64,000 bases of DNA from an uncultured bacterium (GTDB taxonomy: Bacteria; Armatimonadota; UBA5829; DTLH01): NCBI GenBank assembly GCA_964497515.1, contig CAZCCV010000002.1:62252-126251 (forward strand), given 5' to 3'. Numbering within the stretch: position 1 is the stretch's first letter; every line of letters begins with the position of its first letter. A program made the translations under genes and the position numbers. Shown in pieces: positions 11,551 to 28,880 of this stretch. The notes beneath the pieces were generated by a model that worked only from the letters and a program-made list of their open reading frames with translations, was not told the DNA's origin and did not search any database.

Positions 11551-11580
11551 TTGCGAGACGATGAGTAGTTCTGGTATACT
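11551..11580 (+). promoter_or_regulatory. Putative promoter of the pilB-pilT-pilC-pilD operon (TTGCGA-18-TATACT, TG-extended)
   Basis: TTGCGA at 11551..11556 and TGGTATACT with TATACT at 11575..11580, about 135 nt upstream of the pilB ATG. Confidence 0.35.
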
Positions 11581-11715
11581 GGATTGTAAGTCTGGTCACT
11601 GATAAGTCTAGATACAAGAATACTGCTGTGAGTGTCGACGGATACTTCGAGCAGAGACCACTAAATCGTGTCAAAGGCTGACCAGGACACACCAGTCCGG
11701 GAGAGGTGTTCAAGT

Positions 11716-13485
11716 ATGGGGATAGCGAGAAAGGACCTGGGTGAGGTTCTCGTAGGAAAAGGAATTATATCTGCGGAGGACCTGTCTCAGGCGCGGGAAA
11801 CCCAGCGAAGCGCACCAGGTGACATAGGTCGCATTATTGTCGATCTCGGATTTGCTGAGGATCGCGATGTGACCAAAGCCAGGGCAGAGGTTATGGGTCT
11901 CCAATTCGTTGATCTCAGCACACAGCGCATCGATGAATCGGCCGCCAAATCATTGCCAGAACGGATTGCTAAGCAGCATAAGCTGCTGCCTATTGCCAAA
12001 AACGGCGGCAAGCTCACTGTGGCAATTGCCGACGCCAGCAACCCAATGGCGCTCCAGGATGTAAGACTCTCCACCGGCGCACAGCAAATCCAGTGCGTGC
12101 TATCAACAGAAGATGATATAGACGATGCCATTCGTCGTATATACCAGTCGTCCAGTGGCGGTGACGGCGCGGTAGTCCCTGTGGAACCAGGTATGGCTCC
12201 TGCAGGAGGAGCGGCACCCGTTGGCATATCTTCTATCAGTGAAGCTATTGCCACATACGGTGCTCGTGAAGAGGCTCCGGAAGACGAAGAAGGTATGCGC
12301 AAGGAAGCTGAAGAAGCTCCGATTATCCGTATCGCACACACGATTATTCAGCAGGCAATCCGTGACGCGGCATCTGATATCCACGTCGAACCAGACAAAA
12401 GAGGGGTTCGTGTCCGTAACAGAATCGACGGCGTTCTTCACGAGATTATGCCGCTTCCTAAATACATTCAGGCACCGCTCATATCCCGTCTCAAAATTAT
12501 GGCCGAAATGAACATTGCAGAGCGTAGAATTCCGCAGGACGGACGTATTCCGATCCGTTGGGACAACAAAGACTACGACCTTCGTGTATCCTGTCTGCCT
12601 ACAATCCATGGCGAAAAGATCGTTATGAGAATCCTCGACAAAGGAAACGTTCTCCTCGGTCTAAACAAGCTGGGGTTTACGGCAGAAAATCAGGCTCAGA
12701 TTGAGGAGCTAACCTCCCAGCCGAACGGAATGTTTCTGTCTACCGGACCAACTGGTAGCGGAAAAACGACTACTCAGTATTCTATCCTGCACAAGATCAA
12801 CACTGTAGATAAGAACATCATCACAATCGAAGACCCGGTAGAGTATCAGCTTTCTGGAATATCGCAGGTTCACGTCAATCGTAAGGCCGGTCTTACGTTT
12901 GCAAGCGCTCTGAGATCCTTCCTACGACAGGACCCGGACATCATTATGGTTGGTGAAATGCGAGACCTTGAGACGGCTGAAATCGCTGTTGAAGCATCAC
13001 TCACCGGACACCTTGTTCTGTCTACCCTGCACACCAACGACGCACCATCTTGTGTAATTCGACTTGTCGATATGGGGGTTGAGCCGTTCCTCATTTCCGC
13101 GACGGTTATTGGAGTCCTTGCTCAGAGGCTTGCCAGAAGGGTGTGCTCAAACTGCAAGCAGGCTTATCAGGTTCCAGCATCAGATCTCAGAAGATTTGGC
13201 TTCAAACCAGAGTCTCCTGAGCAGATGGTTACGCTTCATAGGGGTACTGGCTGTGATGTGTGCAGACAGACCGGATACAAAGGCAGAGTTGGTATCTACG
13301 AGCTTATGAGAATGAACGACGAGATTGCCGAACTGGTAGTCCGACGTGCTCCACTGGCCGACGTTAGAGAGGCCGCCAAAGCACACGGTATGGCCGAGCT
13401 TCGAGAAGACGGTCTTATGAAAGTTCTTGAAGGTATGACGACCCCGGATGAAGTTATGAGAGTAGTCTTCACCGCGGGACACTAA
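11716..13485 (+). CDS. pilB: Type IV pilus assembly ATPase PilB (GspE family)
   Basis: N-terminal T2SE_Nter/MshEN-like region; Walker A GPTGSGKTT; Asp box; His box; tetracysteine zinc motif CSNC...CDVC; GspE signature region (RIPIRWDNKDYDLRVS). The track ORF starts at 11668; ATG 11716 (MGIARKD) is the better-placed start. Confidence 0.9.
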   Translation: MGIARKDLGEVLVGKGIISAEDLSQARETQRSAPGDIGRIIVDLGFAEDRDVTKARAEVMGLQFVDLSTQRIDESAAKSLPERIAKQHKLLPIAKNGGKLTVAIADASNPMALQDVRLSTGAQQIQCVLSTEDDIDDAIRRIYQSSSGGDGAVVPVEPGMAPAGGAAPVGISSISEAIATYGAREEAPEDEEGMRKEAEEAPIIRIAHTIIQQAIRDAASDIHVEPDKRGVRVRNRIDGVLHEIMPLPKYIQAPLISRLKIMAEMNIAERRIPQDGRIPIRWDNKDYDLRVSCLPTIHGEKIVMRILDKGNVLLGLNKLGFTAENQAQIEELTSQPNGMFLSTGPTGSGKTTTQYSILHKINTVDKNIITIEDPVEYQLSGISQVHVNRKAGLTFASALRSFLRQDPDIIMVGEMRDLETAEIAVEASLTGHLVLSTLHTNDAPSCVIRLVDMGVEPFLISATVIGVLAQRLARRVCSNCKQAYQVPASDLRRFGFKPESPEQMVTLHRGTGCDVCRQTGYKGRVGIYELMRMNDEIAELVVRRAPLADVREAAKAHGMAELREDGLMKVLEGMTTPDEVMRVVFTAGH

Positions 13486-13498
13486 GGGAGAAGTTGCA

Positions 13499-14692: not shown

Positions 14693-14805
14693 AACTGGCG
14701 ACATAGAGATTTCGTATTGGGGACTGCAGTGCACAGACCACAAGCTATACTTTTAGCAAGATAATAGTGCCATGCATCCGAAATCTCTATAGGAGGTGAA
14801 GGCAA

Positions 14806-16032
14806 ATGCCTAGTTTCCAGTATACAGTACGTGATGTAAACGGAACAATGATTCCTGGAACGGTAGAAGCGGACAGCGAAGACTTACTTCGTAGACGTTT
14901 ATCCGAGCAAGGATTCGAAGTTGTCGAAATCAAGGAGACAAAGACCGGCAAAAAGAAATCTCCTGGAACGGGGTTCGGAAGAGTAAAACTGAACGATCTC
15001 GCGGTGTTCTGTCGACAGTTCTCCACTATGATCGATGCCGGAGTCTCGCTTGTACGGTGTCTGGCCGTTCTTGCAGAACAGACGGTTTCTGCGAAGCTGA
15101 AAAGGATCATTTACGATCTACAGGCCGAAGTCGAGGCTGGGCAGACGCTCTCGAGAGCACTCGGAAAGTATCCGAATGTGTTCTCTAACTTGTTTGTCGG
15201 TCTCGTAAGAGCAGGTGAGGTTGGTGGTGTTCTTGAAGAAAGCTTGCAACGTTTAGCAGGATTCCTCGAGAAAGACCAGGAACTCAGGCGAAAAGTCCGA
15301 TCAGCTATGACATATCCAGTCATAGTCATGTTCGTGGCTTTGGGCATAGTTATATTCCTGGTTACCTTCATCCTTCCGAGTTTTATGACTTTGTTCGATG
15401 ACCTTGGTGTAAAGGAGTTCCCTGCTCCTACCGCGCTTCTCATGGCATTTAGCAACTTTTTGACCAGCAAATGGTACATTATGCTGATTGGACTGGTCAT
15501 CTTCGTAGTGGCATCGCGCGCGTTCTTGTCTACAAAAGTCGGTAAACGTTTGTTTGATAGGTTCAAACTGAAGGTTCCGGTTTTCGGAAACCTGAACCAC
15601 AAAATCGTTCTTGCCAGATTTTCAAGAACGCTCGGCACACTGCTTGCATCGGGTGTCCCTATTTTGCAGGCGTTGGAGACTGTCGCAGGGACTGTCTCCA
15701 ACGAGATTGTGAGTGATGCGATTTTGGAGGCTAGAGCTAGGATTAGAGAAGGAGACCGTATTGGAGATCCCCTTCAAAAGAGCAAATTGTTCCCGCCAAT
15801 GGTTGTTCAGATGATCTCGATTGGCGAGGAATCTGGAGCTCTCGACCCGATGCTTGCCAAAGTTGCAGACTTCTATGAATCTGAGGTTGATGCTACACTC
15901 GCGTCCCTTACGTCTGCTATTGAGCCTATTATGATCGTATTCTTGGGTGGTGCGGTTGGATTCATCGTTATTTCGATCTTCCTGCCGTTGATCTCTGTTA
16001 TCACGAGTTTGACTGGTGCTGGAGGCGAGTAG
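14806..16032 (+). CDS. pilC: Type IV pilus inner-membrane platform protein PilC (GspF family)
   Basis: Two GspF repeats, each with conserved cytoplasmic helices and TM segments (e.g., LSRALGKYPNVFSNLFVGLVRAGEVGG and the repeat EIVSDAILEARARIREG...MISIGEESG). AGGAGG RBS. Confidence 0.9.
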   Translation: MPSFQYTVRDVNGTMIPGTVEADSEDLLRRRLSEQGFEVVEIKETKTGKKKSPGTGFGRVKLNDLAVFCRQFSTMIDAGVSLVRCLAVLAEQTVSAKLKRIIYDLQAEVEAGQTLSRALGKYPNVFSNLFVGLVRAGEVGGVLEESLQRLAGFLEKDQELRRKVRSAMTYPVIVMFVALGIVIFLVTFILPSFMTLFDDLGVKEFPAPTALLMAFSNFLTSKWYIMLIGLVIFVVASRAFLSTKVGKRLFDRFKLKVPVFGNLNHKIVLARFSRTLGTLLASGVPILQALETVAGTVSNEIVSDAILEARARIREGDRIGDPLQKSKLFPPMVVQMISIGEESGALDPMLAKVADFYESEVDATLASLTSAIEPIMIVFLGGAVGFIVISIFLPLISVITSLTGAGGE

Positions 16033-16906
16033 CCTGATACCGTTTTGGCTAGGAGCCTTGATAGTTTTTGTCTACGGCACCGCGATTGGCAGCTTTTTGA
16101 ATGTTGTCATTTACCGGATGCCGCTAGACTTATCTATTGTGCGACCACCTTCTCATTGCCCGAAGTGCAATACACGGCTTCGGGCAATTGACCTTATTCC
16201 ACTGCTGAGCTTTCTGGTGCTCGGCAGGAAGTGTCGCTACTGTGGCGAGCCCATAGGATGGCGGTACTTTGGCGTCGAACTGTTGACCGGGCTTGCACTG
16301 CTGGCACTGTATGCCAAGTTCGGATTTGAGATTAATTTCTTTGTGTTTGCACTGTTTACATCGGCGCTTATTGCTGTTGTGTTTATTGATCTCGACCATT
16401 GGATTATTCCGGATCAGATCAACCTGTTCGGGGTGATTCTGGGTGTCGGGAGAGATATTCTTGGGTTTCTGTTGCACGAGGAGGGTCACGTTTTTCTCAG
16501 GATTCCTATCCCTGCAACGGAGATCAGTGTTCCGATGCTGTGGTCCGTCGTTGGGCTTCTCATCTGCGGTGGGATTTTCTATTTTATCGCGGTTGTTGGG
16601 GGGCTGGTCTTCAAGAAAGACGCGATGGGCGGCGGCGATATTAAGCTGGCGGCGGCGATTGGCGCGGTTATGTGTGGGTCGATCACTTCGTGGTTTGGGC
16701 TGGGACTTGCGCTGCTGTCGTTCTTCCTTGCTGTTTTTGTCGGCTCGATAATAGGTATCGGTATGAAAATAGCAGGGGCGAGTTCGGGGAAAGAGAATTA
16801 TCTTCCGTTTGGGCCGATGATGGTGATCGGTGTTTTCGCAACGTGGTTTGTTGGGCAACCGATGATCAAGTGGTATCTTGGATTTCTGCAGCGCGGAGGG
16901 ATGTAA
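16016..16906 (+). CDS. pilD: Prepilin peptidase (A24 family, PilD)
   Basis: GSFLNVVIYRMP; zinc-finger CPKCNTRL...CRYCGEPI; catalytic Asp regions (VFIDLDHWIIPD; GGGDIKLAAAIG). GTG start overlaps the pilC end. Confidence 0.9.
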   Translation: MLEASSLIPFWLGALIVFVYGTAIGSFLNVVIYRMPLDLSIVRPPSHCPKCNTRLRAIDLIPLLSFLVLGRKCRYCGEPIGWRYFGVELLTGLALLALYAKFGFEINFFVFALFTSALIAVVFIDLDHWIIPDQINLFGVILGVGRDILGFLLHEEGHVFLRIPIPATEISVPMLWSVVGLLICGGIFYFIAVVGGLVFKKDAMGGGDIKLAAAIGAVMCGSITSWFGLGLALLSFFLAVFVGSIIGIGMKIAGASSGKENYLPFGPMMVIGVFATWFVGQPMIKWYLGFLQRGGM

Positions 16907-17044
16907 GCAAACACACGCTTGCCCGCTTTTCAGGAACTATCTGAGCCCAAACTGAGTCGTATACCTAGAGGGGCCCTAAGGCATGGTGTTTTCCGTTCTG
17001 CCCGCTTATACGCCGGGCTGGATCGGATTAGCAATGCCTGCCAG

Positions 17045-17074
17045 CAAGGGCAGGGTTTTGAGTTTTATGGATGC
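17045..17074 (+). terminator. Rho-independent terminator after pilD
   Basis: CCTGCC-agcaag-GGCAGG followed by GTTTTGAGTTTT. It separates the ATPase/platform operon from the pilin operon. Confidence 0.5.
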
Positions 17075-17120
17075 TTTGGCTGTGTGAAGTGCCAAAGCAA
17101 AGGAATTTGGAGGGAAGAAT

Positions 17121-17888
17121 ATGAAGACGGTGCGCGGCAAGCACGGATTCAGCCTTATTGAGCTTCTCACTGTAATTGCTATCATCGCCATTCTTGCGGC
17201 GATCATCTTCCCGGTTATGTCGAGCGTCAAAGCAGAAGCCAGGAAGACCAAATGTATGACGCAGCTTCAGCAGATCGCTTCTGCTATGAAGATGTTTCAG
17301 ACGGATAACCGCAAATACCCGGAGTCGCTGGGAGGCTTTGTTCAGTACGACGGCGAGGGAATTGTCCCGATGGAGCGCTCGCGTGGAGACGCGCTCTATC
17401 CGCAGTATGTGAAGAGCGTTAGCGTATTCCATTGCCCGGATTCTCCGGTTACCAACACCAATTCGGTAGTGAGAATCAGTGTTGGCGGTCAGAACTTCGA
17501 TTATTATGCATACGACAGCTACGATGTCTTTGTGCCGAATCCTGTAGAGCCAGGTGCGGTAGTGCCGGCTGGCATTCCGGATATTAGATACACCACGCAG
17601 TGGGCGGATAGTGTTGCGAGTGTTAGCCTGCTGCCTCCGAGCGCAGGTAAGTCAGATGGTGACGGACTGCGGCGGTACGACTTCAAACGTCAGCTCCATT
17701 TCCGCAACCCGTCGGATGATACTGTGGTTACGTGGTGCAGCTATCACGCTAAACAGGGTGACACCAAATCGATGGTGTTGGTGCTGTTCCTGGATGGACA
17801 TGTAGACAAGATTCCCGCTGTGCAGGTGCAGGGTGATCCTTCAACTGGCGCCGTTGGAAGCAGGCAGAGGACTTCTCCGAAGCTGTAG
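17121..17888 (+). CDS. Type IV pilin-like protein with prepilin N-terminal methylation motif and C-terminal H-X9-DG tail (DUF1559-type)
   Basis: Class III signal KHG|FSLIELLTVIAIIAILAAIIFPV with Glu at +5. C-terminal ...AKQGDTKSMVLVLFLDGHVDKIP matches the H-X9-DG tail of the large prepilin family of Planctomycetota/Verrucomicrobiota/Armatimonadota. Confidence 0.8.
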   Translation: MKTVRGKHGFSLIELLTVIAIIAILAAIIFPVMSSVKAEARKTKCMTQLQQIASAMKMFQTDNRKYPESLGGFVQYDGEGIVPMERSRGDALYPQYVKSVSVFHCPDSPVTNTNSVVRISVGGQNFDYYAYDSYDVFVPNPVEPGAVVPAGIPDIRYTTQWADSVASVSLLPPSAGKSDGDGLRRYDFKRQLHFRNPSDDTVVTWCSYHAKQGDTKSMVLVLFLDGHVDKIPAVQVQGDPSTGAVGSRQRTSPKL

Positions 17889-17982
17889 TGGCATTTTGAC
17901 TGGTGGTTCTGGGTAACCGCCAAGCCACGTTCAGGCATTGTGGCGGTTGCCCTGACGGTCACCTTTGATGGCGGAGGCGGCT

Positions 17983-19641
17983 ATGAGACTGATGAAAAAC
18001 AATCGAGGCACATCACTTGTTGAAGTGCTGGTTGTTATGGTGGTACTCCTGCTGGGGATTATGACCATCGTACGACTTTACCCAACGGGGTTCCAGTCGG
18101 TTCGACACGCGGAGAGTATAACCTTTGCCAACAGGCTCGCCCAGTACGAATTGGAGCGCTGGAAGAACAACTCAGCGAATCTGCCTGATGGCGTTCTTCC
18201 TATTGATGATTCTGGCGCTGTGCTGAACGATCAAAACGGCGGACCTCCGATTGTGGAAGACTACAACGGCGGTGTGCTGGTTTCCGATAACGCTACCACG
18301 TTCCGCCGAGTCATTGGCGAAACGACAAAAATCCCCTTTGGCGGATGGTCAATTGACAGCCCGTCCTCTGGTTCGATGTACGTTCTCGCCTTCGGCCCAA
18401 TCAGCAATACTGCGGGTTCTTTGGCTGTCCGCGGTGGTAATCTGACTAGAAGGGTCTTCGACTCAAGCGACGGCAGCATTCAACCGTGGGCGTACTTGAG
18501 AGGCTCTCAGTACGGTATCGACTACGGTGAACAGGGCGAAAAACCGCAGTTTTGCTTCCCTGTAGCTATGTCAGACAGGCAATACTTTATCTCTTACTCG
18601 TGGTGGGAGAGGGGTTCCGGCGAGCCCGTTATGAAGACTGCTACAAGCATTCCGGTGCGTGTTGCTGCCAATACTAGAGGCTGGATATCGCTGACTCAGA
18701 TACTAAACGATGCCGGAATGAGTGTTCCGACTGGCTTCATCGGTCTTGACCAGTACAGCGATACCGCTGCTAGGGGGTTCCTTGAGGTAGCAAACTTCTC
18801 TTCGGATGCTTACGAGTTCAAGCTGCTCGATCCTGTTCTTGGGATACTGTCGTTCAACCCTCTGGGCTACTCACAGACCGAGTTCGGACACTCGCTCGAA
18901 GCAAAGATCGACTACGATATCCTGGATCTCCAGATCATTCGCGAAGACAAGCGTGTTTCGCAGAGTGGGCCGTTTATCGTCAACCTCACACTTCATGACC
19001 TGAAAGAAACAGGTGTGAGTGTAGAAGTCAACGGCGATACATACCAAGGCATACATCCACCGGTCATCCCTGCGGGTGTTGACGTGATGGCCATTGACCT
19101 CGAAACACTGATGGCGATTCCGATAGAGAAAATCTGGATCGACTACAAGGCCGGTATAATTAATCTTCCAGCTACTGTTACGCTCGTCGGCGAGGGAAGC
19201 ACGGTGCCTAACATTTCACCTGCTGGACGCAATATTAGGTTCTACTACAAAGCCGAGGGTGATTGGTCGTTGCAGTTCCAGAAAGCGTATGTCCAGTATG
19301 AGAGACGCGATTCCGGAACTCTGGACTTCAAGTCTTATATGCCCGATGCTTCAGATTTCAGAAAGATCTGGCTGTCGGCGTGCAATGTAAATCATTCCAT
19401 TGCAGTAGACTACGACTATTTGGACAATAGCGGGCAGGTTCGAAAGGTAGTCGGTGAGAACCACAAGGCGACTGATGCTTTGGATTTGCTTGGCTCGACC
19501 AAGTGTACTTACATTACTTTGGATCACGATCCGATCCGCATTTATTCAGTGAATGGCGTGTCTGCACGCGCTAGAGTGCTATGGCGCGAAGGCGAGCGCT
19601 GGAGGCACGTCCAGCTCGATACGATTCTCACTCGCAAGTAG
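17983..19641 (+). CDS. Giant minor-pilin/pseudopilin-like protein (PilV-like position), 552 aa
   Basis: Prepilin signal NNRG|TSLVEVLVVMVVLLLGIMTIV with Glu+5; the remainder is a large beta-rich globular domain with no recognised family. The track ORF starts at 17965; ATG 17983 chosen. Confidence 0.7.
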   Translation: MRLMKNNRGTSLVEVLVVMVVLLLGIMTIVRLYPTGFQSVRHAESITFANRLAQYELERWKNNSANLPDGVLPIDDSGAVLNDQNGGPPIVEDYNGGVLVSDNATTFRRVIGETTKIPFGGWSIDSPSSGSMYVLAFGPISNTAGSLAVRGGNLTRRVFDSSDGSIQPWAYLRGSQYGIDYGEQGEKPQFCFPVAMSDRQYFISYSWWERGSGEPVMKTATSIPVRVAANTRGWISLTQILNDAGMSVPTGFIGLDQYSDTAARGFLEVANFSSDAYEFKLLDPVLGILSFNPLGYSQTEFGHSLEAKIDYDILDLQIIREDKRVSQSGPFIVNLTLHDLKETGVSVEVNGDTYQGIHPPVIPAGVDVMAIDLETLMAIPIEKIWIDYKAGIINLPATVTLVGEGSTVPNISPAGRNIRFYYKAEGDWSLQFQKAYVQYERRDSGTLDFKSYMPDASDFRKIWLSACNVNHSIAVDYDYLDNSGQVRKVVGENHKATDALDLLGSTKCTYITLDHDPIRIYSVNGVSARARVLWREGERWRHVQLDTILTRK

Positions 19642-19708: not shown

Positions 19709-21544
19709 ATGAAAAGGACTGGGGCAAGAGCTGGTTTTACCATAATTGAATTACTTGTGGTCATCACGATCACGGTCATGTTGTTGGGGCTTATTATCGG
19801 TCCGGTCGTTCAGACCTTCGGGTTGACTCGCCAGGCTCAGGCTATGGTGCAGGCTCAGGATACCGCGCGATCGACTCTTTCTATGATCAGTCGCGATCTG
19901 AGCCAAGCGATGTTCGTTTACGACAACTCGAACAGTGCGATGAACTTCCCGTGCATACAGCCTGATGGTGTGACGCCGGTAGTGCTCAGTGCACAGTATG
20001 GCAAGGTCGATATGATTCTACCTAAGCTAACGATGCACTGTAACAATCCGGATCATCATGACGGATCGCGCGATTATGAGCGAGGAGATGAGGCGTGGCC
20101 AAGATGCCCTGTCTGCGGTTCTGACGAAGTCGAGGCACGACCAAGGCAGCCATTAACGCCTGATGCCAAAATAGTGCGCTACTTCATCGGTTTGGTAGAT
20201 AACGATCCTGCTTCGATATCTGATGCAGCTCCGAATCCCGGCTACCGAGATTGGCCGGAGACCGGGTCTCCGCTGAACGGCTTCATCCTTTACAGGGCAG
20301 AGGTCAATCCATATGACGACTCTGAGGATCCGATGAGTGGGCACAACCTGTTCCGCTATGGTGCGGATGGCAATCCGATATTGGATGATCCTAATTTCTT
20401 CTATGATACGGACATTGCACCTAATGGGGAGCCATACTGGAAGAACTGGAAGTCGACGGCGAAGCCTGTTGGTTTGCAAACAGAGACGGATCTAGTCATA
20501 CTCCGTTTGAATAACGAAGAGACTGCTATTGTATCTCTCACACCGAGCGTTCGCTTCCAGCTTTCACAGGTCACGAACGACACATTTGAGCCGTCGCATA
20601 TTGCGGATGAGAGTGCAGAGTCTCCCATAAGTATTCCATCGGTGTTTAAAGCAACATACGGCGGGTGGGGAACCTCTACAGGACCATTCAATACCGACAT
20701 CTATAGCGTTACAGTATTCCGTCCTGGTGGAGCGGCTGGTGATGCTTGGTTTAGAACCAGATGGGACTGGAATGGCGCAACTAGCAGCTATCATCTCGTT
20801 ATATACAAATACACCGGTGGAGGGAGCAACGCCATATTCGATTGCACTGCTTACGAAAAGTCGGGAGTCTTTCCGGCGAGCGCACCGGACATTGCATTTT
20901 TGGTCGATCCGAACAGAGGCGAGGTCAGATTCGACTTCCCAGACTCGGATGTCATAAACGGTAACCACATAGTTGATATGAACAAACAGGTGCGTGACAC
21001 GTGGGGCGAACCTACAAGCGCACCGCGGCGAACGTATCGCCTGACCAAGTTCCGCAGTATCAATGCCAACGATCTGTTCCAGCCACGAATTGTGCCTGGG
21101 AGCGAGGTTGTTGTCGGCCCTGATATGTCACCGGACAAAGTGGTGATGGTGCCGGATGGTCACGGGAGTTACGTGGTTCAGACACTCAATCCTAACCCTG
21201 TGAGGTACGAAAGAGTGCCATTTAATCTCGGTGATCCGGGACGCAATCAATACAAAATCGATTATGGTATGGAAGACCTGGCGGGACAAGCCGTCGGGCG
21301 GATGATTTTCAGCCCGGCTTATGATGAGCCGATTCCAGAGGTTATGCCTGATGGTTCACCTGCGCAATTTGTGATTAGATACAAGTTCCAGTGTAACCGT
21401 GATCAGGACGTGCTTCAGGGCAACTACGCTACAAAGAGCCTGATGCAGGTTACAGTCGGTATTCGGTTCTACGACAGGCAGTCTGGCAAGCTGTATCCTC
21501 TGGAGCTCTCAGACAAGATCAAAGTCCGTAACCTGATGAGGTAG
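19709..21544 (+). CDS. Giant minor-pilin/pseudopilin-like protein (PilW-like position), 611 aa, with Cys/His-rich insert
   Basis: Prepilin signal ARAG|FTIIELLVVITITVMLLGLIIG with Glu+5; a Cys/His-rich insert lies at residues 82-136. Confidence 0.7.
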   Translation: MKRTGARAGFTIIELLVVITITVMLLGLIIGPVVQTFGLTRQAQAMVQAQDTARSTLSMISRDLSQAMFVYDNSNSAMNFPCIQPDGVTPVVLSAQYGKVDMILPKLTMHCNNPDHHDGSRDYERGDEAWPRCPVCGSDEVEARPRQPLTPDAKIVRYFIGLVDNDPASISDAAPNPGYRDWPETGSPLNGFILYRAEVNPYDDSEDPMSGHNLFRYGADGNPILDDPNFFYDTDIAPNGEPYWKNWKSTAKPVGLQTETDLVILRLNNEETAIVSLTPSVRFQLSQVTNDTFEPSHIADESAESPISIPSVFKATYGGWGTSTGPFNTDIYSVTVFRPGGAAGDAWFRTRWDWNGATSSYHLVIYKYTGGGSNAIFDCTAYEKSGVFPASAPDIAFLVDPNRGEVRFDFPDSDVINGNHIVDMNKQVRDTWGEPTSAPRRTYRLTKFRSINANDLFQPRIVPGSEVVVGPDMSPDKVVMVPDGHGSYVVQTLNPNPVRYERVPFNLGDPGRNQYKIDYGMEDLAGQAVGRMIFSPAYDEPIPEVMPDGSPAQFVIRYKFQCNRDQDVLQGNYATKSLMQVTVGIRFYDRQSGKLYPLELSDKIKVRNLMR

Positions 21545-21558: not shown

Positions 21559-24339
21559 ATGAATATTTACAATTGCGGCAGATTACGGCATAAAGGTGAG
21601 CAGGGTCAGTCTCTGATCCTTGCAGTTATAGTAATGTTCCTGCTGGTGTTTATCGGCGTGATTTTTGTTCTGCTTGTGGCTAGAAACCAGGGGCGCGCGG
21701 GACGGTCGCGAGATATGGTGCAGGCACAGGCTCTCGCTGAAGCCGGAATTCACTTTGCCGATTCAATGCTTACATCGAGCGAGGATGGGGCCGATTGGCG
21801 TCCTGAACCTGCAAATTTGGGGTTCGCGTGGGATCCGGCAACTGGCTACACTCCTACGGCGGATCTGCCCGATGTTGCCGAGAACCATCCCGACTTCAAA
21901 TGGTTGAGACCGTACCAGCCGGTTGATACAGACGTGACGGTTGGTGGTGCTACAGTGCGTGGCGCTATGGGGCCGTCGGGTGGCTTTACGGCTGTAGAGA
22001 CGGGCGGTGGCAGGTATCTGCTCCGTGTTAGCTATAATCCGGATCGAAATGATCCGATGTCGAAGTTTATCAAGATCGAATCAATCGGGCGCATTGGAAT
22101 TGTTGATTTCAATGACCCTACCACTTGGGGTGAGGACAACCGAATTCGTCGGGAATTCACGGCCTATAAGCCTATCGGAGTAACCGACTATATGCGCTTC
22201 GTCACCAACAAGGACAAGCGTTCGGCAGATATTCCTCTTGGCGCTGCAGGTTTTGATGTCAGCTATGGCTACTGTAAAGACCCTAACGACTGGCGGCCTG
22301 CTCCGATAAGAGTCAACGGAAATCTTGCTTGGACAGGCAGAGAGATTGATATCTATCTGGATGGCAGCACTACTCCAGACCTCGGGTTTGTTCCCACGAG
22401 TCTGGTTGAGGTTGCTGGCGATATCAAGCACGCTCTCAATCCTGAAGACAACGACAACCCCGCTAGGGTGTTTGTATTCAAAGTGGAAAACGGTGCGGCG
22501 AGCACTGCAATTCCTGTTCAGCCGAGCACAATTGGTTCTGGCTTTGATACTGTAAACGGTCTGTATCGAGATGGCTCAAATGATACTGGTCTTCAGCGGG
22601 AAGCCAGGGGAATCAAATACCTTGGCCCACCGAGTATAGAAGAAGTGTCGGGGCCCAACAAGATACCGCGATACATCGCGCTTACCAGAGATTCTGGCAA
22701 TTGGCTGCAGTCGAACAGTGGGTTTATGGTTAACAGCGGCCGCTACGGATGGGGAAGGGGCGTTTACATCGATAACGTTTCCGACTTGCAGCCGGAAAGT
22801 GAAACGCTCTTCGGTGGTTATACTCCTCGTGCCGACTGGATTAAGCCTAACAACCGTATGTCTTCATACTGGCAGGGGCCCTACTACGTGCCGCCTGGCG
22901 TAGTGATTTCACTCAACCCGTACGATACAGATGGCGATGGTCTGCCGGATATTACAATGACTCGCACAGATGTCGTTACTCGTGCGCGAGATCCTCTGTA
23001 CGGCAAGAAATCGATATGGTACGATGCGGCTGGAAACCCGATGCACGAAAAGGGTTCAACGATAACAATCCCTTATCCACAGGGTGATCAGACCTTTACC
23101 TACTGGCACGATGCCAATAACAACGGCGTGCACGAGTCCAGCGAGGATATGAGTATTTCAATTGATCGCAATGGTGTCATCTATGCTGCAGGCAACGTAC
23201 GTATTCGCGGTATGTTGGCCAAAGGAAAGCAGCTTACGGTGGTATCAGGTGGAATAATCTATATCGAAGGCAATGTGTTGAAGCACCGAGACTTGAATAC
23301 AGGTGTCGTTGATGAGACAAGTGCCATATCGCTTCTTGCGAGAGACTATGTGTGTGTGAATACTACTCAGTTCGTAGGTCTTCTAACCAGCGCCGGGCCG
23401 AGTTCATTCGTCTCCGATGCTGGAACCGGACAGGCTCCGTATAGTCAGCTAATCACACCGGAGCCAGCGACTACGTTCTTTACAACGTTCTCATACGGCC
23501 CGAATACTGGCAATGCCGGTCTCGATTCAATGCTCTTTGTTCGCCAGGCCGGCGAGTATGGCCCGGCATATATCAATATGTGGCTCAACAGACGCCTAGG
23601 AGGAAACCAGGGGTTGGTCGCTATTGGCACGGATGATGGTGGAAATATCGGCCCGCTTGGTTCTTGGGTATATGGTTGTGGAGACCCACGATTCTCTTTA
23701 GAGGGGACAGGCGTTTCAGGGCTGTTTGAGCACAAAGTGTGGAACCTGACGAATGCATTTACAGGTAACGGGCTTCACACTGGTGTAGGTGTGCCGAACT
23801 ACTTCGAAGTTGCACTCGATCAGTCTACATATATGCGAAACAACTATCTGCTTTCGGCGTTTACGATTCAGCCGTTGGATGTTAGGATTGAGGCTGCGAT
23901 GTTTGCGCAGAACAGGTCGTTCTTTGTTATTCCGGGATCGTGGTTCAATCAGAATGCGACCGATACCCCGGATGTCAGCACGGGTTCTCGTGATGTTCCG
24001 AGACCTCGCGGCGTTGACAAGAGATGGCCGTTCTACAGTGACGCGCTCGATACTAAGATTACAATCGACGGTGCGATAACTGAAAATCTTCCGGCATCCA
24101 CTGCTGATGTCAGCGAATGGTACTCCAAATGGAGCAATATTCCTGCTACGTATGGCAGTTCCGGAGTGGACACTGCTCACGGCGGGGATGGACTTACTTT
24201 TGTATACGACCCAATGCTGGGTTATCCGGTCGATTCTTTCGGTAGACCTGTGCGAACGGACGAATACGGCAGAGCGCTTCCTATTACGCCGCGCCTGCCT
24301 ATGTGCCGTGATCTCTACTACTATGGCGAACCCACCTAA
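21559..24339 (+). CDS. PilX/GspK-like pilin-like protein lacking Glu+5, 926 aa
   Basis: N-terminus GEQG|QSLILAVIVMFLLVFIGVIFVLLVARNQ then RDMVQAQALAEAGIHFADSML resembles the PilX_N / GspK N-terminal domain (hydrophobic helix, A-x-AEAG motif). Like GspK it has no Glu at +5. Long beta-rich C-terminal region. Confidence 0.6.
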   Translation: MNIYNCGRLRHKGEQGQSLILAVIVMFLLVFIGVIFVLLVARNQGRAGRSRDMVQAQALAEAGIHFADSMLTSSEDGADWRPEPANLGFAWDPATGYTPTADLPDVAENHPDFKWLRPYQPVDTDVTVGGATVRGAMGPSGGFTAVETGGGRYLLRVSYNPDRNDPMSKFIKIESIGRIGIVDFNDPTTWGEDNRIRREFTAYKPIGVTDYMRFVTNKDKRSADIPLGAAGFDVSYGYCKDPNDWRPAPIRVNGNLAWTGREIDIYLDGSTTPDLGFVPTSLVEVAGDIKHALNPEDNDNPARVFVFKVENGAASTAIPVQPSTIGSGFDTVNGLYRDGSNDTGLQREARGIKYLGPPSIEEVSGPNKIPRYIALTRDSGNWLQSNSGFMVNSGRYGWGRGVYIDNVSDLQPESETLFGGYTPRADWIKPNNRMSSYWQGPYYVPPGVVISLNPYDTDGDGLPDITMTRTDVVTRARDPLYGKKSIWYDAAGNPMHEKGSTITIPYPQGDQTFTYWHDANNNGVHESSEDMSISIDRNGVIYAAGNVRIRGMLAKGKQLTVVSGGIIYIEGNVLKHRDLNTGVVDETSAISLLARDYVCVNTTQFVGLLTSAGPSSFVSDAGTGQAPYSQLITPEPATTFFTTFSYGPNTGNAGLDSMLFVRQAGEYGPAYINMWLNRRLGGNQGLVAIGTDDGGNIGPLGSWVYGCGDPRFSLEGTGVSGLFEHKVWNLTNAFTGNGLHTGVGVPNYFEVALDQSTYMRNNYLLSAFTIQPLDVRIEAAMFAQNRSFFVIPGSWFNQNATDTPDVSTGSRDVPRPRGVDKRWPFYSDALDTKITIDGAITENLPASTADVSEWYSKWSNIPATYGSSGVDTAHGGDGLTFVYDPMLGYPVDSFGRPVRTDEYGRALPITPRLPMCRDLYYYGEPT

Positions 24340-24404
24340 CAGGGTAGCAAGAGCTGATCGGTGTTTTGTGACGGCCAGGCCGTCGTGAGAGGTCTTGAAT
24401 AGGA

Positions 24405-27400
24405 ATGATGATGAGACGAAAAATCCCAATCATAGCCACCTTGGCGGTTCTGATTTCAGTGGCGCTGACGACAGGTGTGTTTGCAGCCGGCCAGTTATAT
24501 GTGGATAAACAGCGAACCATTAACGCTGGTGTGCTTGTGCCTACAAGGCCAAACTCTACACTGGCCGATCCTGCGGCTCCATTCGTCTTTTATATAATGG
24601 GTGCGAGAGAGGATGCAAAACCGCACGCTTGGAACTTCGTTAATCCTCTAGCCGGCGGAAGAGACAGCTTCAAAAATGTGAAAGACTATTGGCTGGTTTC
24701 ACTGCCGCAGACTACGTTTGAAAATCTTATCAAGTTCGATGTGCTGTATCTCAGTACTACTCAGCTTGTTAACTTCCGGATGGCGGACAAGGACAAACTG
24801 CGCAGATTCGTCGACGGCGGTGGTTGTCTGTGGGTAGACGGCGGAGCTGGAATGACGTTTTCGAGCGTGCTGGGCGATGCCTTCTTCCTGCCTCAGATGA
24901 ACTTTGTGTCTGGCGGCTCCGGCATACCTATGCTCGCACAGCGCTTGCATCCGGTTGTGACCAACCCATTTTGGCTGAACCAGGATGAGATAACAATACT
25001 TGGCCAGGGGCCAACAACGATTAATCCGGGGTACGATAGCGGTTTTGGTTCGATGCCCGATCCAAACACACTCTCTCCCGTTGTTTTGCTAAGCGGTGGA
25101 CTCGGCGCTGCAAAACCGACTATAGCTACTGTCGAATATGGTAGCGGCAGGATTGTTGTCACGTCGCATTTTATCGGAGGAATGATAGAACGTCCGGTGA
25201 CTGGCAATACAGCTGTGAACGTAATCACTACTCAGAACTCGAATCTGATGTTTGCCAACACATCGGCATTGAGATTTGCCTATAACGTGGTTGCATACGG
25301 CAGTTCCTCTACATCGTTCCGCAAGAACTACCGTCGTAGTGGGGTGTCCATTGAGAATCTGGCGGCTCCGCTCGATCCAAAATGGCGCGCTCCTATAGTC
25401 TCTCCTGGAGGAGCTACGATAGAGAATAGCCCAGTCATCTGGAAGAATATGATCTTCGTGACCAGTGGCAACACGATTTACGCATTCGATGCCAATCCCG
25501 AGTTCGATCTGGATCAGAACGGCAATCTGGATGATGGTGTGCCGAATCCAGGGCAGCCTTTCGATTTGGTGTGGTCTTATTCGTGTCCCGGCCAGATATC
25601 GAGCCCGACAGTAGCTACGATGTTAGACCCTCGGACATCAGGGCAACTCTCTGCATCTGATTTTATTATGGTCAACTGTACCGATGGCAGGGTATATGTC
25701 TTTGATACAGTGCCGGTTGATTCTTCAACAGGCATGATTGCCACTAACCCCGGCGCTGCACAGCCGATACCTTCGTTCTGGAAGGTAACAATGAACGTTG
25801 GATCAGGCCCGCTGCTGCCACCAGTTGCTCAGAACGGGTGGATCTACTGTGTTGGAAGTGACGGCGTCGTTTATGCGTACAGCCCGATTATATCTGCTGG
25901 TTCAGGCACATTCGATCTGCCTGCGGACTCTTGGGCAGTTCCACTGTTTCCTGGTACCAGCGGTTACAATGTGAGTGTGAAGTCTGGGCCGCTCCTAGGT
26001 TACGTCAAGAATCAGACTAATGGAGCGATTGTTCAGGTTTTGTACGTGGTCGCAAGGCCGCCTATGATCTCAACCGACCCCAACGCAGGGAACCCAAACG
26101 ATTGCATCTATGCGCTTCCTCTTTATGTGTGCAGCGATCGCCTTATGCCTAGAAACCCGAACGCGCTTAGGGGTTCTCCTACGGGAGCAATACCGTTTAG
26201 AATCGGGTTCTTGAGTGGAATGGGCACCAATCTGCCTGTGTCGAAGTATCCAGCACCTGAAGTCTGGGCTTATAACCCTGTATATAACGCTGCCGATGCT
26301 GATGCTGTAACTCCGGTACCTGTAGAGGCCGATTTCCAGCAGTCGAATACCGGCACAGTGAACATAACAGTGACTCCGCCCAATAGAATTGGTCCGAACA
26401 TTCGTGTCTATGCGACATATGGCATTGACTACAGTGCATTCCAGAGTTCAATGTCAGCTCCGGTTCCGATGTACGAGCTGAAGCCAAAAGTTGGAGGCTC
26501 TGTTGATATTATTAACCTGAGTATCAATGCTACTCCCGCTATGGGGTCTAACGATACTCTCTATATGGGTGTTAAGAATGATTCCAGTATAGGCGACCCG
26601 GGATCCGGGCACGCTTGGGTGTATTCGGTGTGGTTCGATGGCAACCCATCTGCCGCACGACTGAAGTGGAATTACTTCCTCCACGGCGGCGGTCTTATGC
26701 AGGATCCTACTAGCACAGTCTCATCGACAGGCAGAGTCCCTCTCGATGCTGCTGATCCTTCTCGCCTTTGGGGTGTGAGGGCTAAAGATCCTGTAACAGG
26801 AGCAATTGTGCCCGTGCGGCATTTGGAAGTCCGTTCAACTCCTGCAGTCACAAGAGATAAGGTATTTGCAATAGCGACAACGGATAATCCAGGAAGCCCG
26901 AATCTTCCACGCTCATATTTGCTCTGCTTCAAGGCGGACTCGAGCTTTGTTATTCGCCTGAATCGTTCGCTTTATGATACTAGCAACAACCAGCGAATGA
27001 GTGTTAAGCTGTGGCAGCCGGACTTCCTGTTCAACACGGCAAATGTGGCTCAATCTCCGCTGCTCACATCTGTTCAGGTGCCTTCGGATATGATTGACTA
27101 CAATTCCGGCACTGTAACGATTAACGACTTTGCCAAGCTCAGAGTTCAGGGTTCGTCGATCTCAGGTGTGCAGACCAGTCCGTTGACACCATCACTCCCT
27201 GTTTGGGTGTTCATTAATAATCAGCCTGTTCCTATCAATGAAGTCGATCTGTCCAGTTGGGACAATCTGCTGTGGGCGCTTCCAATACCGAACAATGGTA
27301 GCCACGTGACCAGTGTGTCGTCATCGCCGATAGTGTTGGGCGATTACGTGTATTTTGTCAGCGATGATGGCTATCTGTACTCCGTGCTGGCAGAAGTCAA

Positions 27401-28880
27401 TCCGCCCAACCCCAAGACAAAAATGCTGGATGTCACGGCGAAAGACTCTGAATCCTGGTTTGTCGTGCAGCAGATTGATCCGGCGGGTGCATCGGGCACA
27501 AACAGGCGGAATCTGTCGCTTGCCGGCGGGAATGGATTGCTGGCAGTCCCTACGGATTCCGGATTATATGTGTTCAAGAACCAGACAACGCTTGTTACCG
27601 ACAACAGACGAGTGATGGAGATCGGCAGCGACGGAAGAGTGATTTGGTCATGCGACTCTGTCATTCAGCCCGAGATAATTAGTGACTCTGTGCCGCCTGT
27701 TTACGGTATCCTCCCTCAGGAGCTGAATAAGCCGCTTGTTGCACAGAAACTGGGGTCTTCCGACTACCTTGTTGTCGACTCCGGAAATGACAGAGTGATA
27801 CGAATGGACAAAGGTGGCCAGGTCACCTGGTCGCTAAGCCAGTTCATCGACCCACAGGGGCTTCTCCGCTCCGGCGAACCGCTTCGTCTGAAGAATCCGA
27901 GCGATGCTGTAGTGTGGGGTGAGTTTGAGAAGCGCGATGGCAAATGGTACTATCTGTACCACTGTCTCGTAGCCGACAGCGGAAATTTCCGGATTGTCGA
28001 TATTGTCAACCGCTTCAATGCCAACGACAAGATGCAGATTCTAAGTCCATATGGCGTAGATTCGAACGGAAGACCGATTCACGAATTGAACTGGGTGTCG
28101 CAGACTACCAGCAGGGACAAACGATACTCATACAACTCTATAGAGCTAGTGCGCGGCAATCCGGGCGGAGACCCGAGCCGCTTGATGAATTGGATATGGG
28201 CGTCCACCTCGAACTATGGGCTCGGAACCGCGACCGATCCGACACAGAAAGAGAGTACAGGAGGAGGTCAGCTCGGTGGTGCTATCATCAGTATGGAGTA
28301 CCGCGAGAGCGCATCAGCAAACTCGGCTGAATGGAATTATCTGGACGGAAGAGTCGATGGACAGTTGACCACACTCCTTGATAACAAAGGCGCCGGGCCC
28401 GCGATTGCACTTTCGCGACCGAGTTACTTCACTGTGCTCGATTCCGGCACTCAACGGCTGCTGATATGCGATTCTTCCGCTGTATACGTGACGGAGGGAC
28501 GCGACATTCAGTGGAAGTTCACCTCGGAGGACTATCGAAATATGCCGCGCGAGGTGATAAATGAGTTCACACAGACTCCTGTCCCGAGACCGGTTCGAAT
28601 ACCGATTCCGTTTTCTCCACAGCGTGCGCAGATGCTTGACGACGGTACGTGCCTTATTGTAAATAGCTTTGCTGGCAGGATGTACGACAAGGCGGGCAGC
28701 AAGTTTACCGGAGAGATATTCAGAGTCGATTCTAGTCACAATCTGCGCTGGTTCACTCCAAGGCTCTGGTGGGTGCCAGATACACCGACCAGCCAGCCAG
28801 GGGATGACGGCGTATTCGTTCAGAAGACGTTGAATGCTCCCAATATGGATCAGCCTACTTCGGCACAGCGGCTGAAATAG
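24405..28880 (+). CDS. 1491-aa secreted multi-domain protein: GATase1/ThuA-like N-domain + PQQ-like and NHL-like beta-propeller repeats (PilY1-like position)
   Basis: Signal peptide MMMRRKIPIIATLAVLISVALTTGVFAAG. N-terminal block (FDVLYLSTT...RFVDGGGCLWVDGGAG) resembles ThuA/DUF4159 class-I glutamine-amidotransferase-like folds. Repeated PQQ/BamB-like segments (TIYAFDANPEF, RVYVFDTVP, WIYCVGSDGVVYAYSP, YVYFVSDDGYLYSV). C-terminal NHL-like repeats (YLVVDSGNDRVIRMD, HCLVADSGNFRIVDI, LICDSSAVYVTEG). Confidence 0.6.
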   Translation: MMMRRKIPIIATLAVLISVALTTGVFAAGQLYVDKQRTINAGVLVPTRPNSTLADPAAPFVFYIMGAREDAKPHAWNFVNPLAGGRDSFKNVKDYWLVSLPQTTFENLIKFDVLYLSTTQLVNFRMADKDKLRRFVDGGGCLWVDGGAGMTFSSVLGDAFFLPQMNFVSGGSGIPMLAQRLHPVVTNPFWLNQDEITILGQGPTTINPGYDSGFGSMPDPNTLSPVVLLSGGLGAAKPTIATVEYGSGRIVVTSHFIGGMIERPVTGNTAVNVITTQNSNLMFANTSALRFAYNVVAYGSSSTSFRKNYRRSGVSIENLAAPLDPKWRAPIVSPGGATIENSPVIWKNMIFVTSGNTIYAFDANPEFDLDQNGNLDDGVPNPGQPFDLVWSYSCPGQISSPTVATMLDPRTSGQLSASDFIMVNCTDGRVYVFDTVPVDSSTGMIATNPGAAQPIPSFWKVTMNVGSGPLLPPVAQNGWIYCVGSDGVVYAYSPIISAGSGTFDLPADSWAVPLFPGTSGYNVSVKSGPLLGYVKNQTNGAIVQVLYVVARPPMISTDPNAGNPNDCIYALPLYVCSDRLMPRNPNALRGSPTGAIPFRIGFLSGMGTNLPVSKYPAPEVWAYNPVYNAADADAVTPVPVEADFQQSNTGTVNITVTPPNRIGPNIRVYATYGIDYSAFQSSMSAPVPMYELKPKVGGSVDIINLSINATPAMGSNDTLYMGVKNDSSIGDPGSGHAWVYSVWFDGNPSAARLKWNYFLHGGGLMQDPTSTVSSTGRVPLDAADPSRLWGVRAKDPVTGAIVPVRHLEVRSTPAVTRDKVFAIATTDNPGSPNLPRSYLLCFKADSSFVIRLNRSLYDTSNNQRMSVKLWQPDFLFNTANVAQSPLLTSVQVPSDMIDYNSGTVTINDFAKLRVQGSSISGVQTSPLTPSLPVWVFINNQPVPINEVDLSSWDNLLWALPIPNNGSHVTSVSSSPIVLGDYVYFVSDDGYLYSVLAEVNPPNPKTKMLDVTAKDSESWFVVQQIDPAGASGTNRRNLSLAGGNGLLAVPTDSGLYVFKNQTTLVTDNRRVMEIGSDGRVIWSCDSVIQPEIISDSVPPVYGILPQELNKPLVAQKLGSSDYLVVDSGNDRVIRMDKGGQVTWSLSQFIDPQGLLRSGEPLRLKNPSDAVVWGEFEKRDGKWYYLYHCLVADSGNFRIVDIVNRFNANDKMQILSPYGVDSNGRPIHELNWVSQTTSRDKRYSYNSIELVRGNPGGDPSRLMNWIWASTSNYGLGTATDPTQKESTGGGQLGGAIISMEYRESASANSAEWNYLDGRVDGQLTTLLDNKGAGPAIALSRPSYFTVLDSGTQRLLICDSSAVYVTEGRDIQWKFTSEDYRNMPREVINEFTQTPVPRPVRIPIPFSPQRAQMLDDGTCLIVNSFAGRMYDKAGSKFTGEIFRVDSSHNLRWFTPRLWWVPDTPTSQPGDDGVFVQKTLNAPNMDQPTSAQRLK

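Follow-up and report, generated by a model that had tools for sequence, protein, structure and literature searches.

A conserved five-gene pilin cassette beside pilB-pilT-pilC-pilD in Armatimonadota: a probable type IV pilus priming and tip module with oversized minor pilins

The locus described here most probably encodes the core of a T4a-like retractile pilus together with a self-contained five-gene priming and tip module, in which the minor pilins are hypertrophied and the position of PilY1 is occupied by a non-homologous protein. The probability of this reading can be put at about two in three. The DNA is that of an uncultured bacterium (GTDB Armatimonadota; UBA5829; DTLH01; assembly GCA_964497515.1), and the window, the whole stretch that was analysed, comprises 64,000 nucleotides of contig CAZCCV010000002.1 (62,252-126,251, forward strand). 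All nine open reading frames were found on the plus strand where the original prediction had placed them, in the order pilB, pilT, pilC, pilD, a terminator-like hairpin and five co-oriented genes. The features of the locus are as follows (a slash marks the prepilin cleavage site).

11668..13485, + strand: pilB-type assembly ATPase (MshEN / c-di-GMP-motif region at the N-terminus), 605 aa
13499..14692, + strand: pilT-type retraction ATPase, 397 aa, TIGR01420 PilT/PilU family
14806..16032, + strand: pilC-type platform protein, 408 aa, two T2SSF domains (E 3e-66)
16016..16906, + strand: pilD prepilin peptidase, 296 aa (A24_N_bact 111.4 bits, Peptidase_A24 36 bits)
17037..17064, + strand: terminator-like hairpin with a T-run in the gap between pilD and the pilin cassette, CCTGCC-AGCAAG-GGCAGG followed by GTTTTGAGTT
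17121..17888, + strand: GspG/DUF1559-like prepilin, 255 aa, KHG/FSLIE (N_methyl, DUF1559, T2SSG)
17911..17952, + strand: hairpin with a 12-bp stem between the 255-aa and 552-aa genes, a possible attenuator
17983..19641, + strand: pilin-like protein, 552 aa, NRG/TSLVE, PilV/GspI position, conserved class III signal
19709..21544, + strand: pilin-like protein, 611 aa, RAG/FTIIE, PilW/GspJ position, conserved class III signal
21559..24339, + strand: GspK/PilX/ComZ-class tip pilin by predicted fold, 926 aa, EQG/QSLIL, no Glu+5
24405..28880, + strand: secreted non-pilin protein, 1491 aa, PilY1 position, with Sec signal, DUF4159 and predicted beta-propellers

The locus is directly preceded, at 10679-11392, by a gene for a PEP-CTERM protein (exosortase substrate).

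The first four genes supply the T4a machinery, namely PilB, PilC, PilD and the PilT retraction ATPase, and PilT exceeds its NCBIfam cut-off, matching TIGR01420 over its full length with 510.1 bits (cut-off 319.1). The prediction that the locus encodes a type IV filament and has PilT close by is borne out. PilB contains T2SSE (E 4.2e-136) and MshEN (E 2.2e-21) domains; it scores 632.5 bits against the PilB model TIGR02538 (cut-off 675.65), 599.8 bits against GspE (cut-off 630.25) and 37.3 bits against the c-di-GMP motif NF053729 (cut-off 38). The best NCBIfam matches of PilC are the Thermus-type PilC (447.8 bits) and the Myxococcus-type PilC (420 bits), followed by GspF (389 bits, cut-off 424), every score being below its own cut-off. 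The PilB and PilC assignments are the best-scoring ones, though both fall short of the equivalog cut-offs; this and the near equality of the PilB and GspE scores count against the main reading.

The closeness of PilB to GspE favors an alternative in which the cassette forms a T2SS- or Hps-like, mostly periplasmic pseudopilus that secretes proteins or exopolysaccharide, with the 1491-aa protein as its cargo or as a periplasmic accessory. The G-, I-, J- and K-like order of the genes mirrors gspG-(H)-I-J-K, the best named match of the 255-aa protein is GspG (N-terminal, E 5.5e-13), the 611-aa protein resembles, at its N-terminus, the hormogonium-polysaccharide pseudopilin HpsC of cyanobacteria (E 1.3e-10), and the upstream PEP-CTERM gene would also fit. 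Homologues carry automatic T2SS annotations, and Denise et al. 2019 placed the Armatimonadetes systems with the T2SS (PMC6668835), which likewise counts against the main reading. Nevertheless, a pseudopilus of this kind is unlikely. The full-length PilT lies between pilB and pilC and occupies the same place in relatives with linked pilBTCD, and PilC is closer to the PilC proteins of Thermus and Myxococcus than to GspF. A T2SS would combine GspC, L, M and D with GspE and GspF and would not include PilT, whereas here the GspE and GspF scores are below their cut-offs, PilT is present, and tblastn with E. coli queries gave no GspC-, L-, M- or D-like match in the window or in the flanks of 80 loci. 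Moreover, the Hps pseudopilins are now interpreted as a type IV pilus priming set (bioRxiv 10.64898/2026.02.12.705559).

Armatimonadota presumably have an outer membrane, since LPS genes are present in the phylum (PMC5007114). The predicted lack of a secretin and of pilMNO in the locus extends to the entire 64-kb window, and the 10-kb flanks of the cassette in 80 species likewise gave neither a secretin nor pilMNO(P); the queries used in tblastn for the window and the 80 loci were E. coli GspD, HofQ, HofMNO and GspCLM only, so that divergence limits the sensitivity of this search. No equivalents of pilE or pilY2 were seen at the locus. The filament would presumably pass through an unlinked secretin. 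That no linked pilMNOP or secretin gene was found counts against the main reading, as does the need for subunits of 60-100 kDa and a partner of 160 kDa to cross a secretin.

The first three proteins of the cassette carry the elements of a type IV pilin or pseudopilin signal, namely a short basic leader with Gly or Ala at its end, a hydrophobic alpha1-N helix and Glu+5, and the proteins or their orthologues match N_methyl (PF07963); the fourth has the signal without Glu+5. The four motifs read exactly as had been claimed, and the class III signals are genuine and conserved. The possibility that they are chance transmembrane helices is ruled out, since orthologues across the phylum, taken from as many as 71 species, keep the cleavage site and, in the first three proteins, Glu+5. 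Besides the cassette, the 64-kb window contains no further prepilin genes.

The 255-aa protein matches N_methyl with 30.4 bits (cut-off 21.2), DUF1559 with 28.8 bits (cut-off 23.3) and T2SSG with 21.4 bits, and all 56 orthologues have Glu+5 and Gly or Ala before the Phe at the cleavage site. Its gene has a GGAGG sequence 8 nt 5' of the ATG. The protein had been called an H-X9-DG prepilin, a label that does not strictly apply. The spacing is H-X15-DG, no H..DG whatsoever occurs in 36 of 57 orthologues, TIGR04294 is absent from the matches, and the PF07596 (DUF1559) match spans only profile positions 2-38 of 268, i.e. the N-terminal helix, which leaves the protein outside the full DUF1559 family. 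The gene is the sole major-pilin-like gene within the window and is tandemly duplicated in 5 of 80 related loci. It may encode the major pilin or else a subunit in the FimU/GspH position.

The hairpin in front of this gene had been taken for a terminator. A hairpin with a T-run is present, but its stability in a folding test is no better than that of shuffled sequence. For this reason the evidence for termination is weak, and the separation of pilBTCD and the cassette into two operons is treated as unproven. The intergenic stretch that contains the hairpin at 17911-17952 has a fold energy of -39.8 kcal/mol (z -2.0) and no T-run, and the hairpin could possibly act as an attenuator.

The next two proteins are pilin-like, as far as tested, at their N-termini only. 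The reading frame of the first starts with TTG in the open reading frame list and would give 558 aa, but the ATG at 17983 is preceded by GGAGG 6 nt upstream, in favor of the 552 aa originally given. Its N_methyl score (19.5 bits) is below the cut-off of 21.2, 23 of 29 orthologues match N_methyl at E<=0.01, and its N-terminus resembles PilV TIGR02523 (E 5.8e-6). Glu+5 is found in all 59 orthologues, the mature lengths of which range from 522 to 692 aa. The 611-aa protein scores 17.5 bits against N_methyl, also below the cut-off, and all 34 orthologues match at E<=0.01; Glu+5 is present in 63 of 67. In addition to HpsC, its N-terminus resembles Verru_Chthon cassette protein C (E 5.6e-7). All its homologues belong to Armatimonadota and bear varying automatic names (PilW family, PulJ/GspJ family, T2SS protein). 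The globular parts of the two proteins, of about 500 aa each, have no counterpart in Pfam or among PDB sequences in sequence and profile searches, and their lack of resemblance to any pilin counts against the main reading. In comparisons with profiles of E. coli GspH, GspI and GspJ only the alpha1 helix aligns. An attempt to assign subtypes by hhalign, in which the 552-, 611- and 926-aa families were compared among themselves as well as to GspH, I, J and K of E. coli, aligned alpha1 only and did not discriminate; for the 611-aa family, GspH even gave a better score than GspJ. Because of this, PilV and PilW identity is not claimed beyond gene position and the N-terminal helix, and it is unproven. 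A putative metal site formed by conserved cysteines of the 611-aa protein was dropped, the cysteines being present in only half of the orthologues.

The 926-aa protein was originally described as GspK/PilX-like and devoid of Glu+5, and this description is upheld. The hallmark of the GspK/PilX class, G/Q at the cleavage site with Glu+5 missing, holds throughout its family: G/Q occurs in 71 of 71 orthologues and Glu+5 in none, the +5 residue being I, V, L or M. The predicted structure has an alpha1 helix (residues 17-73), a GspK-like pilin core with a large inserted domain, a triangular beta-solenoid similar to that of ice-binding proteins, and a CBM-like jelly roll. Members of the family are 830-1200 aa long, and conservation extends across all 926 residues (31-65% identity per 50-residue block, phylum-wide). 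The protein has no Pfam or NCBIfam match, T2SSK, PilX_N and GspK included; 2 of 44 family members touch the GspK model NF037980 (E 0.006), and the NCBIfam HpsA model matches none of the 44. Searches with the 926-aa and 1491-aa sequences against the PDB returned nothing.

The predicted combination of a solenoid and a GspK-like domain is that of Thermus ComZ, a 554-aa tip receptor whose GspK-like pilin fold includes a beta-solenoid (PMC6561018). The filament might accordingly be a DNA-uptake (competence) pilus with a ComZ-type DNA receptor at its tip. This seems quite improbable, as the likeness is one of fold: the protein and ComZ share 12% sequence identity and do not match at the profile level, and the jelly roll is found only in the larger protein. 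The Thermus partner pilins PilA1-3 have 156-233 aa compared with 552 and 611 aa here, and no 1500-aa propeller gene is described for the Thermus competence and pilus locus (PMC6561018). Furthermore, comEA, comEC and dprA are absent from the 64-kb window, and a cyanobacterial PilX subfamily with expanded solenoids is of the motility/EPS rather than the competence type (bioRxiv 10.64898/2026.02.12.705559).

The 1491-aa protein starts with a Sec-type signal peptide and a DUF4159 (GATase1-like) domain, which is followed by several predicted beta-propellers. Pfam finds PQQ_2 and DUF4159, and NHL in some orthologues, in agreement with the propeller repeats seen originally. A C-terminal PilY1-type propeller (PF05567/IPR008707) is common to all PilC/PilY1 proteins (PMC8179133), but no member of the 1491-aa family (0 of 30) has this signature or a vWA domain, as had been anticipated for the protein of this locus. 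Like PilY1, the protein is nevertheless a Sec-exported non-pilin encoded directly after the pilX-type gene, which is the case in 67 of 67 loci. PilY1 of P. aeruginosa has about 1160 aa, so that 1491 aa is within the PilY1 size range. The protein can be regarded as a PilY1 equivalent by position only, and this equivalence is unproven.

It is conceivable that the 1491-aa protein stays outside the filament and has nothing but its regulation in common with the pilins. It would then be co-transcribed with them and act in the periplasm or at the surface, for instance as a chaperone of assembly, as a BamB-like scaffold or as an enzyme. The Sec signal in place of a prepilin signal, the missing PilY1 and vWA signatures, the generic nature of the structural matches (BamB/PQQ and NHL propellers) and the DUF4159 domain, which has no assigned role, would all agree with this. 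The gene order makes it a rather doubtful proposition. Among 80 Armatimonadota species, whose loci were compared with 10-kb flanks, the five genes have the same order and strand in 54 of 54 complete loci, in parallel to fimU-pilV-pilW-pilX-pilY1 as originally noted. The complete genomes AP024673.1, OY760504.1, OY969427.1 and JBMNES010000001 are among the carriers. The order is kept, and the propeller gene remains next to the 926-aa gene, even in genomes in which pilBTCD and the cassette lie apart. Such strict adjacency is typical of physically interacting partners. In Fimbriimonadales the cassette is intact amid unrelated genes, an argument for a joint function of the propeller protein and the pilins. 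It is this synteny from which attachment of the protein to the pilus is inferred.

A tip complex of this size had been said not to be a described architecture, which is an overstatement, as there are precedents besides ComZ. Cyanobacterial priming complexes contain PilX/HpsA-type pilins with expanded beta-solenoids, and it has been suggested that the minor-pilin set binds polysaccharide at the tip (bioRxiv 10.64898/2026.02.12.705559). As in the present cassette, four pilin-like genes (FimT-PilW-PilV-PilX) give a priming complex with a solenoid-bearing PilX, which is greatly expanded in one subfamily (PilX_EPS/HpsA). Both cyanobacteria and Armatimonadota are Terrabacteria, and the HpsC-like N-terminus of the 611-aa protein is a further resemblance. 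However, the proteins in the PilV and PilW positions are far larger here, the HpsA model fails in the 926-aa family, and cyanobacteria generally lack a protein in the PilY1 position, for which the solenoid has been proposed as a substitute, whereas in the present cassette the solenoid PilX is accompanied by a giant propeller protein. Modular pilins, in which a pilin module bears bulky modules presented at tips, have been catalogued and often carry lectin- or CBM-type modules (PMC8179133). S. sanguinis PilB and PilC and ETEC CofB are of this kind. In these systems one subunit is enlarged, as opposed to three consecutive ones here; the InterPro-based survey reaches 860 aa at its extreme, and the modules described here lack a database signature. 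Compared with the proteobacterial FimU-PilV-PilW-PilX-PilY1 and T2SS GspH-I-J-K sets, the minor pilins are about 3-5 times larger. The Verru_Chthon cassette A-D of Verrucomicrobia (TIGR02596-TIGR02600) is also a multi-gene set of prepilin-type proteins; its proteins D, B and C give weak N-terminal-helix matches to the 255-, 552- and 611-aa proteins, far below the cut-offs, and protein A has no match in the 926-aa family. Literature searches on pili of Armatimonadota, on the Verru_Chthon cassette and on DUF1559 pilins yielded nothing specific. The five-gene set gives the impression of a known design scaled up into an uncharacterised variant, and not of a new type of machine.

By combining these observations, it is possible to outline how a type IV pilus with such a tip might work. 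PilB, the extension ATPase, which is probably responsive to c-di-GMP, would form the cytoplasmic and inner-membrane core together with PilT, PilC and PilD, and PilD would cut the four prepilins after Gly. The 926-aa protein, with its ComZ/GspK-like predicted fold and no Glu+5, would seed assembly and so come to lie at the extreme tip, where it would display the solenoid and the CBM-like jelly roll. The 611-aa and 552-aa proteins would join beneath it via their alpha1 helices. The 255-aa pilin would then link the tip complex to the fibre or would itself be the fibre subunit. The exported propeller protein would most likely be carried by the tip complex, as an analogue of PilY1 in function but not by homology, and would add a large adhesive or sensing surface. 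Retraction driven by PilT would pull on the target bound at the tip, and the CBM-like module suggests that this target may be a polysaccharide or else exopolysaccharide made by the cell itself.

A further possibility, put forward tentatively, is that the five proteins form a single Armatimonadota-specific tip machine of about 3,800 mature residues and roughly 400 kDa, in which the three core minor pilins are enlarged by domains with no database counterpart and an unrelated DUF4159 multi-propeller protein has taken the place of PilY1. If so, these bacteria would possess a polysaccharide-grappling or surface-sensing head far larger than its fibre, and its passage through the outer membrane would be unusual, or the tip would be assembled outside the secretin.

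Both the binding targets of a type IV pilus and its very assembly depend on the minor-pilin tip complex. Nearly all knowledge of such complexes has been gained in Proteobacteria, in Thermus and in a few Firmicutes, to which cyanobacteria have recently been added. The cassette is a strictly conserved and wholly unannotated module of an entire phylum, and two of its families, the 552- and 611-aa pilins, have ectodomains of about 500 residues that match nothing. The current model of pilus priming is not overturned. The module can be approached experimentally, as there are cultured carriers within the cassette-bearing groups, e.g. Chthonomonas calidirosea, a species that has the cassette, and it allows a test of how large a tip the type IV machine can carry and of whether the role of PilY1 has been reinvented.

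The pilus locus lies among housekeeping genes (alaS, mltG, aroE and a hemW-like radical SAM gene) in DNA of even G+C content (0.49-0.54 across the window), and is arranged as follows:

11668-13485 (+), pilB, T2SSE and MshEN domains
13499-14692 (+), pilT, TIGR01420 at 510 bits against a cut-off of 319
14806-16032 (+), pilC, two T2SSF domains
16016-16906 (+), pilD, A24 peptidase domains
17037-17064, terminator-like hairpin with a T-run, after pilD and before the cassette; shuffled sequence folds just as well
3' of this hairpin, five co-oriented cassette genes of 255, 552, 611, 926 and 1491 codons

For the second cassette gene, the ORF finder takes a TTG start (558 aa); the ATG at 17983, with GGAGG 6 nt upstream, gives the 552 residues of the original prediction, whose account of the gene content, sizes and prepilin motifs proved accurate. 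Just 5' of pilB, a 237-aa protein (10679-11392, +) carries a C-terminal PEP-CTERM sorting motif, which would imply an exosortase/EPS-associated surface protein system in the organism. Elsewhere in the window, a 751-aa ORF (4830-7085, +) between alaS and mltG has several hydrophobic segments and no Pfam match, and probably encodes an uncharacterised membrane protein. Two further ORFs without a Pfam match (38647-40137, +, 496 aa; 40350-40940, +, 196 aa) sit 5' of an anti-sigma-factor-type HATPase_c_2 kinase gene (41027-41503). The selA gene (selenocysteine synthase; 34747-36174, -) adjoins tRNA-Leu(CAG) (36249-36334, -) and makes selenocysteine use probable; no tRNA-Sec was found within the window.

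Searching with a profile built from the 926-aa family gave 204 species-level genome loci; 80 of these were kept for comparison, and their gene order was read by tblastn of the window proteins. In every one of the 54 loci with enough sequence to contain them, the five cassette genes share one order and orientation; the propeller gene directly follows the 926-aa gene in 67/67 loci. The cassette occurs in Fimbriimonadales, Chthonomonadales (including Chthonomonas calidirosea), Armatimonadia and Abditibacteriota. Among named homologues of the 926-aa protein, almost all belong to Armatimonadota. Of 40 informative loci, 30 have pilD directly 5' of the cassette; Fimbriimonadales-type genomes carry it detached, amid unrelated genes (acyl-CoA dehydrogenase, SDR, MFS). 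Because the order is conserved, and the genes stay together where detached from pilD, the five constitute an independent module. An Armatimonadota-type cassette or propeller protein also turns up in records labelled Propionibacteriaceae UBA6122, Sedimentisphaerales and Synechococcus sp. RC10B2 (loci L010 and L029, proteins P0167 and P0168), which are probably mis-binned or contaminant contigs. Two 926-aa paralogues (P0044 and P0048, locus-tag prefix M1133) apparently belong to one MAG; these, and second 255-aa-type genes, suggest that some genomes may have multiple cassettes or fibre subunits.

The prepilin motifs claimed for the first four proteins are genuine. The class III site [GA]|F is conserved among orthologues of the 255-, 552- and 611-aa proteins, with Glu+5 (glutamate at mature position 5) in 56/56, 59/59 and 63/67, respectively. 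In the 926-aa family, all 71 orthologues have G|Q and none has Glu+5. Median mature sizes are likewise conserved (260, 599, 608 and 889 aa). These signals and sizes rule out chance transmembrane helices. No further prepilin-like ORF was found in the window.

The 255-aa protein matches N_methyl above the cut-off and the GspG model (E 5.5e-13), and by these matches is a bona fide prepilin. The label of H-X9-DG prepilin was not upheld: that model gives no match, the spacing is H-X15-DG with a DG poorly conserved among orthologues, and the DUF1559 likeness is confined to the helix. Among pilins of the locus, it alone has an N-terminus resembling that of a major pilin, and its gene has a strong ribosome-binding site. 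Between this gene and the next, a stable hairpin (17911-17952, +; 12-bp stem, no T-run, z -2.0 against shuffles) could be an attenuator keeping the first pilin in large excess over the others. A second gene of this type stands in tandem in 5/80 loci (L007, L051, L064, L071, L078). The N-terminus, ribosome-binding site, hairpin and duplication point to a fibre subunit. The gene also remains with the minor pilin genes in detached cassettes, which makes its product a candidate FimU/GspH-type linker.

N_methyl is matched by 23/29 orthologues of the 552-aa protein and 34/34 of the 611-aa protein. The former matches the PilV model over about 60 N-terminal residues, and the latter HpsC and Verru_Chthon-C over about 70; automatic annotation names homologues of the latter PilW family, PulJ/GspJ family or T2SS protein. 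Going by these matches, both N-termini are pilin-like. The globular parts of about 500 residues match nothing in Pfam, PDB sequences, each other or E. coli GspH/I/J, and the labels PilV and PilW are positional.

Neither Pfam nor NCBIfam has a family that takes in the 926-aa protein, and no solved structure matches it in sequence. Its family (876 clusters at 50% identity; full-length members listed are mostly 850-1200 aa) is conserved along the entire length. The predicted fold scores 14.1 against Thermus thermophilus ComZ (294 residues aligned), about 10 against ice-binding-protein beta-solenoids, 8-9 against CBM36/35/6 jelly rolls, 8.2 against GspK, 7.8 against the S. sanguinis minor pilin PilA and 6.8 against XcpX. 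ComZ is a 554-aa tip pilin, in which a GspK-like pilin domain bears a beta-solenoid of about 380 residues resembling ice-binding proteins (PMC6561018). From its ComZ, GspK and CBM likenesses, the modelled protein is placed in the GspK/PilX/ComZ class as an enlarged tip subunit with an extra CBM-like module. In the GspK/PilX family, the first-assembled, topmost subunit needs no Glu+5. By analogy, the missing Glu+5 of the 926-aa protein would fit this logic.

The 1491-aa protein is a non-pilin with a Sec signal. Among 30 family members, DUF4159 is matched in 22, PQQ_2 in 15 and NHL in three; PilY1 (PF05567) and VWA are matched in none, as the original prediction had it. Since the IPR008707 propeller is common to all PilC/PilY1 proteins (PMC8179133), the protein stands outside that family. 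A PilY1-like role, by analogy and not homology, is the most economical reading, because its gene is strictly adjacent to that of the tip pilin.

The argument from pilT for a retractile pilus held: PilT is above its cut-off, and PilC is closer to the Thermus and Myxococcus PilC models than to the T2SS counterpart. On these fits, a T4a-like retractile pilus is more likely than a T2SS, although PilB and PilC score under the equivalog cut-offs, which counts against a firm T4a call. Denise et al. placed Armatimonadetes systems with T2SS (PMC6668835). PilB residues 24-73 (11737-11886), adjoining the MshEN domain, match the MshE-type c-di-GMP-binding motif NF053729 just below cut-off (37.3 bits against 38), and pilus extension may be gated by c-di-GMP. 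As predicted for the locus, no secretin or pilMNO gene is present in the window, and none is linked to the cassette in the 80 species. As Armatimonadetes have LPS genes (PMC5007114), a secretin is expected to be encoded at an unlinked site, away from the cassette.

No annotation of or literature on this module was found. The view that this architecture has no described counterpart does not stand: the enlarged tip pilin ComZ is a precedent for the 926-aa protein, and more than 1,200 modular pilins have been catalogued (PMC8179133). Cyanobacterial PilX proteins bear solenoids, enormously enlarged ones in the HpsA-type PilX_EPS subfamily, and are proposed to be PilY1 substitutes and EPS binders (bioRxiv 10.64898/2026.02.12.705559). 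The cassette differs from these known enlarged pilins in that three consecutive core minor pilins are oversized, two of them with wholly unrecognisable ectodomains, that the cassette encodes both a solenoid PilX and a giant propeller protein outside the PilY1 family, and that the module is conserved throughout the phylum.
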